Positions 2,626 to 6,991 of a stretch of 64,000 bases of DNA are shown one piece after another. Numbering within the stretch: position 1 is the stretch's first letter; each line of letters begins with the position of its first letter. The DNA lies in the NCBI RefSeq assembly GCF_988242995.1, contig NZ_OZ547043.1. The stretch is one strand, 5' to 3'. Both the position numbers and the translations under genes were made by a program. The notes beneath the pieces are model-generated. The model was not told the DNA's origin and did not search any database. It saw only the letters and a list, made by a program, of their open reading frames with translations.

Positions 2626-5022
2626 ATGCACGAAAAGAACATCGCCCTGCTTTGTGATGAAGCCGACCGGCTTTTGCAACTGAATATCAATCTGCTCCGG
2701 CAAATGGTTGATGAGCCGGATGTGTTATCTGACAGTAAGAACGAAAACGGGCTGCTTTTTGATAAACGGAAAGCGCTGAAAAGAATTGAGGAGCTGGAGG
2801 GCGAACAAATCAAAACCGCCCGCAGGGAGATGGTGCTGGCTGTTGTCGGCACGATGAAAGCAGGCAAATCAACCACCATCAACGCCATTGTGGGGCAGGA
2901 AATTCTGCCTAACCGTAACCGCCCCATGACCTCTGTACCGACACTCATCCGCCACGTTCCCGGAAAAACTGAGCCGGTCCTCCATCTGGAACATATTCAG
3001 CCTGTCCGCAATTTATTAATCACACTGCAGGAAAAACTCGCCACCCCGGCAGGACAGCAAGTCGCACAGACCCTGCTGCAAACCGGGGATACCCGTGAAC
3101 TGCTGGATATTCTGACGGATGATGGCTGGCTCAAAAATGAATACCACGGGGAGGAGGAAATCTTTACCGGACTGGCATCGTTAAACGATCTGGTTCGTCT
3201 TGCTGCGGCAATGGGGAGTGAGTTTCCTTTTGATGAATACGCAGAAGTGCAGAAACTGCCGGTGATCGACGTGGAATTCAGCCATCTGGTGGGGATGGAT
3301 GCATGCCAGGGAACACTCACACTGCTGGATACCCCCGGCCCTAATGAAGCCGGCCAGCCGCAGATGGAAGTGATGATGCGGGATCAACTGCAGAAAGCTT
3401 CTGCGGTTCTGGCAGTGATGGATTACACCCAGATGAACTCAAAAGCGGATGAAGACGTCCGTAAAGAGCTTAATGCCATTGCGGACGTATCAGTTGGCCG
3501 CCTGTTTGTGCTGGTCAATAAATTTGATGAGAAAGACCGCAATGGCGATGGGGCAGATGCCGTACGCCAGAAAGTTCCGGCAATGCTGAACAGCGATGTG
3601 CTGCCCGCCTCCCGCGTTTATCCCGGATCCTCACGCCAGGCATACCTGGCTAACCGTGCGCTTCATGAGTTACGGAAAAACGGAACCCTTCCTGTTGATG
3701 AAGCCTGGGTCGATGATTTTGTCAGGGAAGCTTTCGGTCGCATGAAAAAAGATTACGTCTGTAAAGACAGCGAACTGGCAACTGAAGGGGCAACAGACCT
3801 GTGGGAAGGCTCACTTATCGATCAACTGATAACGGAAGTCATACAGAGTTCCCATTCCAGAGCGGCGGCACTGGCGGTTGATTCTGCCGCCGCAAAACTG
3901 ATGCAGAATGCGGAAAATGTCAGCGAATATCTGTCATTACGCCATCAGGGGCTACAGCAAAGCATTCAGTCACTGCAGGCGCATATCACCAGCCTGCTTG
4001 CGGATATCCGGGAAATCGCGGACTGTCAGGAGCAGGTGACCGCTGATGTCAGAATGGCCATGGAGGAGATCGATGCCAGAACCCGGGAATTACTCACGGG
4101 GGTCTGCACCTCACTGGAAGAGGAACTGAATGACTATTTCAGAACCGGTAAACGCAAAGAACAGCAAATGCTGGAGGAAGAAGACACAGAACAACGAAGG
4201 TCCCGGTCCGGATTATGGGGAAAGATTTATCGATGGTCCGGTATCAATAACCCGGGCTGGGAGGATGACAGGATACGAGTCTTTGATCCGGAAAACCCCG
4301 AGATAACATTAAATAATCGCAGGGAAGCCCTTGAACTGATGACGCAAATCGAATCGACCGTGACCAGCCTGCACAGTGAGGCTGAGGCACAGTTCCGGCC
4401 TGAGCTGGAGAAAATCGTCAGCGGGATTGAAACAGGTTTTCGTGGTACGGCCCTGTATGCGACAGAAAACATCGCCGGACGTATCAATGCCCGCCTGGCG
4501 GATGAGGGCTTCACTGTAAAAATCAGTTTTCCGGCAGTCAGTCAGTTACAGACCCGGCTCGCGGTAAAAACAAATCTGAGTGCGCTTATGGAGGAAAGAA
4601 CGGAGACAGTCACCCGTCGCCGTCGGAAGGATAGCTTCATTGGAAAGATTTGTGGATGGATTGGCACCAAAGAATGGGGATGGGAAAACTATAACGTGGA
4701 TGTGAGCCGCAGTGTTATCAATATCAACAAGGTCAGGAAGGAGGTGATGTCACTGACCCGGGCATATTTCGGGGAGCTGCAGGCATCCATTGAGCAGGAT
4801 ATTAACCAGCCCGTCCGCCAGGAAATCGATGCCTTTTTCTGTACATTCAGGGAGAAAGTTGAACAGCTGCGTAACACGCTGATTCAGAGCTCTGAAGATC
4901 ATAAACGCGATCAGCAGGCGCAGGAACGGCTGACCGGGCGTCTTCAGGCGTTAAATGAAAGAGTTCCTGAGCTCATTACTGACAGTAAGGCGTTAAGGGA
5001 AGAACTGGAGACAATGCTGTGA
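2626..5022 (+). CDS. bacterial dynamin-like GTPase (798 aa), CrfC/YjdA-like
   Basis: G1 P-loop GTMKAGKST (nt 2848..2874), G3 DTPG (3328..3339), G4 NKFD (3517..3528); long helical C-terminal region; RBS GGAAGG upstream of ATG. Confidence 0.8.
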   Translation: MHEKNIALLCDEADRLLQLNINLLRQMVDEPDVLSDSKNENGLLFDKRKALKRIEELEGEQIKTARREMVLAVVGTMKAGKSTTINAIVGQEILPNRNRPMTSVPTLIRHVPGKTEPVLHLEHIQPVRNLLITLQEKLATPAGQQVAQTLLQTGDTRELLDILTDDGWLKNEYHGEEEIFTGLASLNDLVRLAAAMGSEFPFDEYAEVQKLPVIDVEFSHLVGMDACQGTLTLLDTPGPNEAGQPQMEVMMRDQLQKASAVLAVMDYTQMNSKADEDVRKELNAIADVSVGRLFVLVNKFDEKDRNGDGADAVRQKVPAMLNSDVLPASRVYPGSSRQAYLANRALHELRKNGTLPVDEAWVDDFVREAFGRMKKDYVCKDSELATEGATDLWEGSLIDQLITEVIQSSHSRAAALAVDSAAAKLMQNAENVSEYLSLRHQGLQQSIQSLQAHITSLLADIREIADCQEQVTADVRMAMEEIDARTRELLTGVCTSLEEELNDYFRTGKRKEQQMLEEEDTEQRRSRSGLWGKIYRWSGINNPGWEDDRIRVFDPENPEITLNNRREALELMTQIESTVTSLHSEAEAQFRPELEKIVSGIETGFRGTALYATENIAGRINARLADEGFTVKISFPAVSQLQTRLAVKTNLSALMEERTETVTRRRRKDSFIGKICGWIGTKEWGWENYNVDVSRSVININKVRKEVMSLTRAYFGELQASIEQDINQPVRQEIDAFFCTFREKVEQLRNTLIQSSEDHKRDQQAQERLTGRLQALNERVPELITDSKALREELETML

Positions 5023-5924
5023 CTTCACCATTTATTCAACAAATTGCTGATAACCGGGTATGTCAGGTACTCACCTGTCTTCCTGAAAAATTTGTGGTTG
5101 ATTTCGCAAACGGTATCGATGTTGCACAGGAGCATATCCGCACGGCCGGAGAGCGCACGTTCTTCCGGCGGTTAAAAGAGGGGCTGAGCGGCGAAGGTGC
5201 TGCACGGCAGAATGCCATCAATGCTTCGCTTGCACAGGGCGTTGAGGCATCCCTGCGCTGGCTGACGGAGCTGACAACGTCACTTGCCACCACAAACTAC
5301 GCGATTACCCGGGTAAACGACAGGGTCAGTTCACTGGTCAGTGATACTGCCAGGCTGGCGCATTATTCCGCAGATACGCGGGAGCAGTTACTCACCCTGG
5401 CCGATCAGGTTCACCAGAAACTGAATCATCTTGAAGAAAAACTCCACCGTGTTGACCAGGTTCAGCGGGCACAGTTACATCTTGAGCAGATATTCTCATG
5501 GTGGAGTGCCGGGCGATATGCGTCCTTTTCCCCTGCCGGACGCTGCTATGTGGCGCTTGAAGAGCTTCGATGGGGCGCGTTTGGTGATGTGATACGTCAG
5601 GGCGAAACAGGGCAGGTTAACCAGCTACTGGATATTCTCAGACATAAAGCATTAACGCAGATGGCACAGGAGAGTGGCGGTAGTGCAACCGTGCGTCTGA
5701 ACACTCTGGACTGGCTTGGTGGTCAGGTCCGGGAGCAGGCAGATAACGAGTGGCATGACGCGATTAACTGGCTGGGGGACTGGTGCAGTGAAGAGCGGCA
5801 TCCGGTGATCTGGTCAACCACGCAGGCTGCAGAACACTTACCGGTTCGTATGCCCCGTCTCTGCTCTGCAGAGCGCCTCTCTGAAAGTATGGTTGATGAA
5901 ATATTTCAGAAGGGGGCGGCATGA
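5019..5924 (+). CDS. dynamin-partner protein (301 aa), YjcZ-like
   Basis: GTG start overlaps stop of upstream dynamin gene (GTGA at 5019..5022); size and position mirror the crfC-yjcZ pair. Confidence 0.6.
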   Translation: MTSPFIQQIADNRVCQVLTCLPEKFVVDFANGIDVAQEHIRTAGERTFFRRLKEGLSGEGAARQNAINASLAQGVEASLRWLTELTTSLATTNYAITRVNDRVSSLVSDTARLAHYSADTREQLLTLADQVHQKLNHLEEKLHRVDQVQRAQLHLEQIFSWWSAGRYASFSPAGRCYVALEELRWGAFGDVIRQGETGQVNQLLDILRHKALTQMAQESGGSATVRLNTLDWLGGQVREQADNEWHDAINWLGDWCSEERHPVIWSTTQAAEHLPVRMPRLCSAERLSESMVDEIFQKGAA

Positions 5925-6991
5925 GTACAGAAATGAAAACGGGGCTGGTGCTGTCCGGTGGCGGGGCGGTGGGCGCTTATCAGGCAGGTGTGGTTAAGGC
6001 TCTGGCAGAGTGCGGCGCACAGATCAGTATGGTCTCAGGAGTCAGTATCGGGGCTCTCAATGGTGCCATTATCGCGGCCTCTCCCGATCTGTCAGAAGCC
6101 GCCGCACGCCTGGAGGCGCTCTGGAAGTATCTGGGAGAGAATCAGGTTCTGTCGGTAAACCGATCGGTTTACTTTTCATTGCTGAAAAAATTGTTCCAGG
6201 CAATGAACCTCTGCCAGATCCCCGGACGTGCAGGAGTACTGCTTACGACGCTTCTTCGCCATATATCGACAATCAACGGGTTCGAAAATCCGATGGCTCA
6301 GCCGTTGTTGTCAGATGGACCCCTGACAGGGCTGATGGATCATTATCTTGATACTGATGCTCTGTCAGACGGGCTACCGTTGTATGTGTCGCTGTACCCC
6401 ACGGAAGGGGGAGTGCAGGATATTATCGACTGCATTCGTGCTGAACTGGGTGCCGGAACTACAAAAAACTCCGTTTTTCAGCATATCCAGAGCCTGCCCC
6501 GCGGGCAGCAGAAAGAAGCCTTACTGGCGTCAGCAGCACTGCCCCTGCTGTTCCGTCCCCGTGAGGTACAGGGAAAAATGTACGGTGATGGTGGTATGGG
6601 CGGATGGCAAAATATGCAGGGGAATACCCCTGTGACGCCACTGGTGGATGCCGGATGCAATATGGTGATTGTGTCGCATCTGAGTGACGGTTCTTTATGG
6701 GATCGCCGGGCTTTTCCGGACACCACAATCCTTGAAATCCGTCCCCGGAAAAAGCTGAAACAAACAGGGGAAGAAGGCAAAAGTGGCGGTCTGCTCAGTT
6801 TTACATCGGCACATACCGACACCTGGCGTCAGCAGGGCTATGAAGACACGATGCTGACGATGGAGCATATCCGGAAACCGCTGGCAGCACGTCAGGCACT
6901 GACCCGGTCAGAGGCGGTATTGCAGAAAAGCCTGGATATAACGGAAGAGGCAGATTTGGCACTGAGAAACGCGATGGCCCGGATTAAATAA
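5921..6991 (+). CDS. patatin-like phospholipase (356 aa)
   Basis: ATG overlaps upstream stop (ATGA 5921..5924); Gly-rich oxyanion motif SGGGAVG (5957..5974), GxSxG lipase motif GVSIG with Ser codon at 6044..6046, catalytic Asp in GDGG at 6587..6589. Confidence 0.8.
   Translation: MSTEMKTGLVLSGGGAVGAYQAGVVKALAECGAQISMVSGVSIGALNGAIIAASPDLSEAAARLEALWKYLGENQVLSVNRSVYFSLLKKLFQAMNLCQIPGRAGVLLTTLLRHISTINGFENPMAQPLLSDGPLTGLMDHYLDTDALSDGLPLYVSLYPTEGGVQDIIDCIRAELGAGTTKNSVFQHIQSLPRGQQKEALLASAALPLLFRPREVQGKMYGDGGMGGWQNMQGNTPVTPLVDAGCNMVIVSHLSDGSLWDRRAFPDTTILEIRPRKKLKQTGEEGKSGGLLSFTSAHTDTWRQQGYEDTMLTMEHIRKPLAARQALTRSEAVLQKSLDITEEADLALRNAMARIK

Follow-up and report, generated by a model that had tools for sequence, protein, structure and literature searches.

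What does a dynamin-like GTPase do in a shared operon with a patatin-like phospholipase? The question is raised by three adjoining genes at positions 2626 to 6991 of a 64,000-nt stretch of contig NZ_OZ547043.1 (RefSeq assembly GCF_988242995.1), hereafter the window, to which all coordinates refer. A preliminary description, made from the letters of the window alone, had singled these genes out as a candidate undescribed operon and had likened their pairing of activities to abortive-infection systems. We find that the three genes, here called A, B and C, constitute a self-contained, horizontally mobile module, and we put about even odds on this cassette being a defence module against phages or other invaders, in which a GTPase gates a phospholipase. 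The genes and the signals that frame them are as follows:

2626..5022, forward strand: gene 1 (A), 798 aa, ATG start, dynamin-like GTPase, paralogue of RdcA/CrfC
5019..5924, forward strand: gene 2 (B), 301 aa, GTG start, partner protein of the YjcZ/RdcB family
5921..6991, forward strand: gene 3 (C), 356 aa, ATG start, patatin-like phospholipase
2612..2618, forward strand: Shine-Dalgarno sequence AGGAAGG of gene 1, read directly from the sequence
7003..7033, forward strand: intrinsic-terminator-like hairpin followed by a T run, from a scan and a fold, within the conserved limits of the cassette
2615..7076, forward strand: transferable cassette, from the ribosome-binding site to just beyond the terminator, as delimited by homology in E. 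coli

Direct reading of the window and of its open reading frames (ORFs) bore out the coupled, same-strand layout that had been described: the GTG start of B lies over the stop codon of A in a GTGA (5019..5022), and the ATG of C lies over the stop codon of B in an ATGA (5921..5924). A terminator hairpin had been placed at 7007..7033, and it too was recovered, since the scan found a stem at 7011..7027 followed by TTTTT and the fold of 6992..7040 reached -19 kcal/mol (z = -3.9; 0 of 200 shuffled sequences were as stable). In those E. coli islands where the cassette follows the adhesin gene cah/Ag43, homology to the query 2400..7100 was limited to query positions 216-4677, that is, it starts 11 nt 5' of the start codon of gene 1 and stops just past the terminator, from which we take the transferable unit to be approximately 2615..7076.

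The co-occurrence of the three genes, which had been proposed as a check, extends far beyond this strain. Among RefSeq complete genomes of E. coli (n = 5,426), with presence defined as at least 80% of window positions 2400..7100, the triad was found in 2,443 (approximately 45%), with up to five copies per genome, and its carriers include O157:H7 and uropathogenic E. coli (UPEC). Outside E. coli, full-length patatin orthologues came from Pectobacterium, Vibrio vulnificus, Plesiomonas, a metagenome-assembled genome (MAG) of Oceanospirillaceae and a metagenome, and all of them had Dynamin_N and YjcZ genes directly upstream. A scan of one genome for each of 100,044 species, with a patatin alignment as query, returned 436 relatives; at 62 of the 80 best-scoring species loci, A, B and C stood in the same order and on the same strand. 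These triads belong to Gamma- and Betaproteobacteria, Cyanobacteria (heterocystous and other), Desulfocapsa, Neomarinimicrobiota and one member of the Synergistaceae. Among the 18 loci without the full triad, six lay at contig ends or had A replaced, and at the other twelve, which were of low rank, neither A nor B was detected with the patatin (ten Synergistaceae, one Neomegalonema and one frameshifted Brasilonema), an absence that holds at most for the five of them that have at least 3.3 kb of upstream sequence.

Where the triad is present, its parts have been kept together and intact. Overlaps of 4 nt are the modal junctions between A and B and between B and C, every G1-G4 residue and every patatin catalytic residue was 100% conserved in 55 triads, and the pairwise distance matrices of A, B and C from these 55 triads correlated with r = 0.86-0.90. 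With a recurrence at 62 of 80 loci, modal 4-nt overlaps and invariant catalytic residues, the three-gene arrangement is not due to chance.

The product of gene 1 matches the Pfam family Dynamin_N (5e-17) and has the composition of a dynamin-superfamily protein, with a G domain joined to a helical neck and a stalk. Translation placed its G1, G3 and G4 motifs where they had first been read, and added G2:

2848..2874, forward strand: G1 of A, GTMKAGKST, with K81 at 2866..2868
2929..2931, forward strand: G2 of A, T102
3328..3339, forward strand: G3 of A, DTPG
3517..3528, forward strand: G4 of A, NKFD

All four motifs were invariant in 55 homologues. The predicted fold of A is nearest to SynDLP, mitofusin/Fzo1, IniA and Campylobacter DLP1/2, and a sequence search of the PDB with A matched the P-loop region of BDLP alone. 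This resemblance to dynamins of membrane fusion, fission and repair opens the possibility that A acts at damaged or curved inner membrane, as DynA and the mycobacterial IniA do, with the patatin remodelling lipids locally, by way of lysolipids and fatty acids, to assist sealing or fission, so that the outcome would be tolerance of pore-forming stress or delayed phage lysis and not suicide. A phospholipase would be a plausible partner for a membrane remodeller, and in a passage of PMC12922286 that cites earlier work, DynA is said to protect at the population level by keeping the membrane intact. However, hydropathy analysis detected no hydrophobic or amphipathic paddle in A, whose maximum Kyte-Doolittle mean over 19 residues was 1.16 (0.96 in B), and no transmembrane or strongly hydrophobic segment in A, B or C. 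Moreover, the paralogue RdcA has been reported as a soluble protein with another protein as its target, and a housekeeping role would leave unexplained the confinement of the cassette to mobile elements, the adjacent WYL regulators and the patchy distribution described below. We therefore regard membrane surveillance or repair as an unlikely function.

Unusual forms of A were seen at three of the surveyed loci. In a Synergistaceae MAG (locus L062, 1290-6353), A has 1,688 aa and consists of two complete units fused head to tail, with two GTMKAGKS P-loops. In Acinetobacter chengduensis (L041, 4930-9039), a truncated extra copy of A (531 aa) precedes the full A. In Acinetobacter sp. KCTC 92772 (L043, 6852-11089), the gene order is a WYL regulator, a 413-aa helical protein without a G domain, B and C; in its N-terminus, the helical protein is similar to A, and a stalk-only protein appears to have taken the place of the dynamin-like gene or to be what is left of it.

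B belongs to the YjcZ/RdcB family, as had been proposed: its residues 26-296 match Pfam YjcZ (PF13990) with 4.7e-70 over model positions 1-272 of 272, and its gene is coupled behind that of an RdcA-like GTPase. It is 31% identical to RdcB/YjcZ of K-12. An AlphaFold2 (AF2) model of B (predicted local distance difference test, pLDDT, 74.9) consists of a long helix (59-164) and a compact C-terminal domain, for which we found no informative structural relatives; a PDB sequence search with B was also empty.

C matches Pfam Patatin (PF01734) with 8.4e-27 and is, to judge from its sequence, a lipase with all three elements of the patatin active site at the positions originally given, including the serine codon at 6044..6046:

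5957..5974, forward strand: oxyanion motif of C, GGGAVG
6038..6052, forward strand: nucleophile elbow of C, GVSIG, with Ser42 at 6044..6046
6587..6592, forward strand: catalytic Asp-Gly of C (DG, in DGG)

These elements were invariant in 12 and in 55 orthologues. In PDB profile searches, C matched PlpD, VipD, ExoU and a phospholipase of the cyclic oligonucleotide-based antiphage signalling system (CBASS), with its N-terminal region only. Two of these matches, VipD and ExoU, might be taken to mean that C is a phospholipase destined for host cells and assisted by A and B, and the cassette does lie on pathogenicity-type islands of UPEC and O157. Such a virulence role is nevertheless very improbable, since the PDB matches span only generic N-terminal patatin motifs, no signal peptide, linkage to a secretion system or eukaryote-targeting domain was seen, and free-living Cyanobacteria, methanotrophs and sulfur bacteria commonly carry the triad.

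Between alleles of E. coli and E. albertii, the ratio of nonsynonymous to synonymous substitution rates (dN/dS) was 0.23-0.26 for A, 0.06-0.07 for B and 0.20-0.25 for C, values of 0.06-0.26 that indicate purifying selection on all three genes. dS itself differs among A, B and C, which hints at mosaic recombination inside the cassette. Within E. coli, B was nearly invariant (3-7 differences) between the alleles compared for A, and the amino-acid differences between alleles of A were concentrated in three patches:

3676..3825, forward strand: fast-evolving patch 1 of A, residues 351-400
3976..4425, forward strand: fast-evolving patch 2 of A, residues 451-600, distal stalk and low-confidence tip loops
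4576..4725, forward strand: fast-evolving patch 3 of A, residues 651-700, beta-hairpin tip

Patch 1 holds 19 of the 94 amino-acid differences to the O157 allele, with a dN/dS of 0.62 as compared to 0.06 in the G domain. In patch 2, dN/dS was 0.52-0.57 across four allele comparisons, and in patch 3, which contains the AF2 strands 656-667 and 686-699, it was 0.44-0.81. Overall, the patches had dN/dS values of mostly 0.25-0.8 between E. coli alleles (0.09 for residues 351-400 against E. albertii), with 0.06-0.12 for the G domain, 0.0-0.12 for the G domain together with the rest of the stalk, and similar dS across regions. The three patches make up the stalk tip in the AF2 model, where the tip is built of beta hairpins and low-confidence loops (loops 538-550 with pLDDT <50). 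Immune sensors typically combine a conserved engine with a variable recognition surface, and the pattern in A is as expected of such a surface.

The closest characterised relatives of A and B come from E. coli K-12. There, the diguanylate cyclase DgcE is activated, in a manner that depends on the GTPase cycle, when the soluble dynamin-like GTPase RdcA and its partner RdcB dock on its MASE1 domain, and it is the nucleotide state of RdcA that decides docking on and activation of DgcE (PMC6510439). A scored 558 bits (3.2e-167) against the NCBIfam model for CrfC/RdcA (NF007368), whose equivalog cut-off is 1146 bits, and by this NCBI criterion it is a paralogue of RdcA and not a protein of the same function. 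Its identity to K-12 RdcA is 46% in the G domain and neck (residues 33-454) and approximately 15% in the C-terminal half. Judged on such comparisons, A and B are paralogues and not orthologues of RdcA and RdcB. The preliminary description, all of whose family assignments (Dynamin_N, YjcZ, Patatin) were recovered in profile searches, had left this paralogy to the closest known system unmentioned, and with it a real rival reading.

According to this reading, A and B regulate DgcE, or another MASE1-type or island-borne enzyme, and thereby tune cyclic di-GMP (c-di-GMP), biofilm formation or motility, with the patatin as an accessory output. The match to the CrfC/RdcA model, the full-length YjcZ match, the identity in the G domain and neck and the RdcB-family name given by RefSeq would all fit, as would the fact that many E. 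coli cassettes follow the biofilm adhesin gene Ag43/Cah and share its regulatory region. What makes us consider a signalling role improbable is that the model score falls well short of the equivalog cut-off, that the poorly conserved C-terminal half is likely the target-binding part, and that the patatin is linked in every deep branch of the family. Indeed, in neighbour-joining trees of A and B, which use crude distances, midpoint rooting and a sample chosen via the patatin, K-12 RdcA and RdcB nested within the triad-associated proteins: RdcA was sister to the triads of Budvicia and Serratia oryzae, RdcB sat on a long branch of the B tree, and the deeper branches (Cyanobacteria, Methylococcales and Moraxellaceae) were all triads. 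With RdcAB nested in the triad tree and the patatin present throughout the deep branches, the role in DgcE activation appears to be a derived and not an ancestral one, and RdcAB may, tentatively, be a patatin-less derivative of the mobile triad.

How does the triad move? In the window, the cassette lies on a CP4-44-type island adjoining yeeA and sbmC, in agreement with the island-cargo location that had been claimed. In the E. coli contexts examined, it was always cargo of a CP4-type island with the same backbone, namely a GTPase gene, sometimes Ag43/Cah, the triad, DUF932, antirestriction, RadC/JAB, DUF987 and CbeA/CbtA genes. The cassette was also found on 47 plasmids, including Nostoc plasmids, and the Vibrio copy lies on an integrative element with a relaxase. 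One plasmid variant is common to IncF-type and other plasmids of Klebsiella, Enterobacter and E. coli; its B was 63.5% identical to that of the window in all 19 plasmid matches listed, and its occurrence suggests recent spread between genera. Beside one plasmid triad (L092, 6773-10991), an insertion sequence, IS1, lies just upstream. In Tolypothrix brevis (L048, triad 6408-11032), the triad lies, as judged by eye, between nifB-fdxN-nifS-nifU-like genes and a homocitrate-synthase-like gene, and may be in or beside a nif-region insertion/excision element of this heterocystous cyanobacterium. No phage-borne copy was found by tblastn in 50,697 GenBank phage records, or in a scan of IMG/VR that used the B alignment and one peptide pattern and was of limited sensitivity.

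Such a constant association with mobile elements, next to CbtA/CbeA or CcdAB toxin-antitoxin genes and with spread on IncF-type plasmids across Klebsiella, Enterobacter and E. coli, would also be compatible with an addiction or stabilisation module, in which C is a toxin held in check by A and B and is freed or unbalanced upon loss of the element, and in which maintenance of the element would be the selected function. We deem this doubtful, since three large proteins with an intact GTPase cycle would be costly for so simple a module, and since the triad also occurs in the chromosome where core genes flank it on one side (L006). In mechanism, it would be close to the defence module that we favour, and toxin-antitoxin-like behaviour would be compatible with a defence role.

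Next, we consider the genomic company of the triad. Flanks were annotated at 14 loci outside E. coli, using precomputed Pfam matches or PADLOC on concatenated flank ORFs, and at 6 of them an established defence system lay within approximately 6-10 kb:

L005, Vibrio vulnificus: BREX (bacteriophage exclusion; PglZ, BrxL) nearby
L008, metagenome: McrBC nearby
L012, Pantoea: BREX (BrxF, BrxC, PglX) nearby
L013, Erwinia: JukAB and a McrBC-like pair nearby
L016, Pseudomonas: JukA-like and NERD/UvrD nearby
L041, Acinetobacter: type I HsdR nearby

Two further loci had PADLOC candidate families, PDC-S24 at one (L042) and PDC-M52B with PDC-S03 at the other (L056), two had a WYL regulator alone and four had nothing recognisable. 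In E. coli strain 5CRE51, a type I restriction-modification system lies at the island edge. Two apparent defence genes were discounted: a helicase in the Gallionella flank, which matched DpdF and BrxH models at 1e-26, was taken for a housekeeping DEAD-box RNA helicase, and Cas12f-like matches in the Scytonema flank were read as TnpB of IS200/605.

An all-against-all comparison of flank ORFs identified a WYL-domain regulator (BrxR/CapW-like) as the only neighbour that recurs across phyla, present at 17 of 66 loci. At six of these (L005, L020, L041, L067, L071 and L078), which represent the five genera Vibrio, Gallionella, Acinetobacter, Psychrobacter and Pseudomonas, its gene immediately precedes A on the same strand, no more than 105 nt away, and at one (L052) it lies directly downstream of the triad. 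Members of the BrxR/CapW family of WYL regulators are known from the vicinity of defence systems, which they control (PMC9122601, PMC9122588).

The E. coli islands have no WYL regulator; instead, we found there a regulatory block of the type that precedes agn43. In the 218-bp region upstream of gene 1, the following features were recognised:

2515..2570, forward strand: agn43-type regulatory block, by alignment to agn43/cah regulatory regions
2515..2544, forward strand: promoter-like hexamers TTAATA-18-TATCAT, from a promoter scan
2530..2533, 2548..2551 and 2561..2564, forward strand: three GATC sites, read directly
2548..2564, forward strand: palindrome GATCGTTATAAACGATC, within the agn43-type block

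The block aligns to the yeeP-flu intergenic region of K-12 and to the GTPase-cah intergenic region of O157, and all three GATC sites are kept in comparison with agn43 (flu) of K-12 CP4-44 and cah of O157. In agn43, the OxyR-binding site contains these GATC sites, which give rise to the Dam/OxyR phase variation of Ag43 (PMC3764049). The window has neither the adhesin gene nor its leader, and the triad stands directly behind the switch, a junction that is present in 1,981 of the 5,426 complete E. coli genomes; in other E. coli islands, the triad lies 110 nt downstream of cah. With the adhesin gone and the triad directly behind a conserved switch, expression of the triad may, by analogy with agn43, be phase-variable. 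If so, the reported 'up-regulation in lysogens' of the operon, which was independent of the medium and came from two colonies per strain, might reflect the clonal ON or OFF state and not control by the prophage.

As for the remaining neighbours, PADLOC matched none of four window genes around the cassette (289-1449, 1497-2405, 7019-7612 and 7826-8233). The window differs from the UPEC strain MS7163 by only two single-nucleotide polymorphisms (SNPs) in its first 21 kb. One, at 7615, creates a stop codon in the downstream hypothetical gene (7127-7810; RefSeq WP_001514307, 227 aa), whose product has two signal-peptide-like stretches; the other, at 11336, falls in the cbtA region, where RefSeq marks cbtA as frameshifted already.

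Taken together, how might the module work? We propose that A, as an RdcA-type dynamin-like GTPase, and B, as its RdcB-type partner, would form the sensor and switch, and that the cytoplasmic phospholipase C would be the effector, encoded in cis, unlike DgcE, the target of the K-12 paralogue, which is encoded at a distance. By analogy with RdcA/RdcB, A would be held inactive while GTP-bound. A trigger, perhaps a drop in GTP, perhaps a component of the phage or a lesion of the membrane that the fast-evolving stalk tip of A recognises, or both, would lead A together with B to license C, which would then hydrolyse membrane phospholipids and stop the infected cell, that is, bring about abortive infection. 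Transcription in the window would probably start from the agn43-type Dam/OxyR switch, so that only part of the population would be armed.

The support for a defence role is circumstantial and comes from the defence-island and WYL neighbours, from the lack of a phage copy in the records searched and from the fast-evolving stalk tip. In favour of it we also count the conservation of the triad as a unit, its mobility, the independent prediction by DefensePredictor described below, and the precedents of patatin effectors in CBASS, of the dynamin-like pair of Eleos and of RdcA/RdcB as a nucleotide-gated activator of a partner enzyme. Several points weigh against it. The sole characterised homologues, RdcA and RdcB, act in c-di-GMP signalling, and a contact of A and B with C, like the direction of control between them, is something we infer by analogy. 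PADLOC has no model for the triad, and our literature searches found no experiment on the operon. The sample of flanks is small and has no matched background, and 8 of its 14 loci are without an established defence system in the vicinity. In the variable patches of A, dN/dS remains below 1 and is thus no proof of positive selection. Finally, the E. coli cassette travels with adhesin and antirestriction genes and may have a role in colonisation or island maintenance. The defence reading as first put forward thus stands in part: the composition remains unnamed and the circumstantial support has grown around it, but the operon is annotated, widespread and already flagged, and its nearest characterised relatives are signalling proteins.

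If the defence role is true, the triad would rank among the most common uncharacterised systems of E. coli, and would provide a new form of patatin-effector control, with a dynamin-like GTPase pair in the place of a cyclic nucleotide. The YjcZ/RdcB family would gain a function beyond the single case of K-12, and the derivation of a biofilm regulator from an immune module would be suggested. As a more speculative extension, which we hold to be possible and less probable than the defence role itself, the RdcA/RdcB-type pair may ancestrally, in its mobile form, have been an immune switch that gates a patatin for abortive infection and reads the GTP level, a phage cue or both through its fast-evolving stalk tip, with RdcAB as a domesticated, patatin-less offshoot and with the module in most E. 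coli carriers wired to the agn43-type switch, for bet-hedged, phase-variable immunity. The agn43-type switch makes two ideas testable, namely that only some cells of a population express a suicide-type system, and that up-regulation in lysogens is a difference in phase state between clones.

To what extent was the candidate already known? The claim that no named system has this composition held in PADLOC v2.0.0, whose defence-system models gave A, B and C weak partial matches alone and no named system, and in the literature, where full-text searches returned no paper naming or testing the triad; it is likewise unmentioned in a domain-centric screen of 2026 in Nucleic Acids Research and in a WYL survey of 2022. 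The word 'undescribed', in contrast, was too strong. RefSeq names all three genes in thousands of genomes ('dynamin family protein', 'diguanylate cyclase regulator RdcB family protein' and 'patatin-like phospholipase family protein'), and two papers of 2026 had flagged the candidate. A transcriptome paper in BMC Genomics describes exactly this operon as a 'putative dynamin phage defence system', with approximately 30% identity to RdcAB according to its authors (PMC12922286). DefensePredictor lists in its Table S5 a 'dynamin family protein' of 798 aa from the ECOR collection (WP_000544741.1) with a mean log-odds of 6.7 as 'Predicted novel defense gene', and in its Table S10 a 794-aa allele with log-odds 7.7 (PMC13092281). 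The recorded start of the unit of WP_000544741.1 gives a span of 4,366 nt, equal to the length of the window triad (PMC13092281), and from length, name, species and operon span we take these accessions to belong to the family of A. Table S6 of the same work, with its 94 tested units, is without the word 'dynamin' (PMC13092281), a further point that counts against defence. The candidate is hence known to the field as a prediction and not as a characterised system; new here are the nesting of RdcAB in the triad lineage and the position of the cassette directly behind an agn43-type switch.

Among named defence systems, Eleos and CBASS come nearest, and the view of the preliminary description that neither is a match was upheld. 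The dynamin-like pair of Eleos, the subject of Millman et al. 2022, reportedly defends in a P-loop-dependent way. Eleos (LeoA and LeoBC) comprises two or three dynamin-like proteins and has neither a YjcZ nor a patatin gene, unlike the triad with its single dynamin-like gene. The LeoBC model matched A at 2.7e-5 over stalk residues 381-508 only and LeoA was unmatched, which led us to reject membership. In structure, A has its nearest relatives in SynDLP and mitofusin and not in LeoA.

CBASS makes use of patatin effectors, and the triad resembles type I CBASS with CapV in having a cytoplasmic patatin with a Ser-Asp dyad as the last gene of a compact mobile operon. Type I CBASS is, moreover, often regulated by a WYL protein (CapW), as the triad has WYL neighbours. 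Membership was again rejected: C scored 18.9 bits against the NCBIfam model CBASS_lipase (cut-off 200), the PADLOC phospholipase effector matched at 1e-4 over the first ~70 residues, and no CD-NTase cyclase was found in the cassette or in its window flanks. Without such a cyclase, activation of C would have to be protein-mediated and not by a cyclic nucleotide.

DynA of Bacillus subtilis shares with A the nature of a bacterial dynamin-like protein and has a reported anti-phage effect, and the A of the Synergistaceae MAG is fused head-to-tail like DynA. DynA differs in being a housekeeping, membrane-binding protein encoded by a single gene, which delays lysis and has no RdcB-like or patatin partner.

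RdcA/RdcB remains the closest comparison. Both systems have the same two-gene core, in which a dynamin-like GTPase gene is followed by a translationally coupled gene for a YjcZ-family partner, the G1 lysine and the G2 threonine that are essential in RdcA are present in A, and both probably act as a nucleotide-gated switch on a partner enzyme. The two differ in that the cassette of the window has a third coupled gene, the patatin, which rdcAB is without, and in that the cassette is mobile cargo whereas rdcAB is a fixed chromosomal operon of the flagellar regulon.

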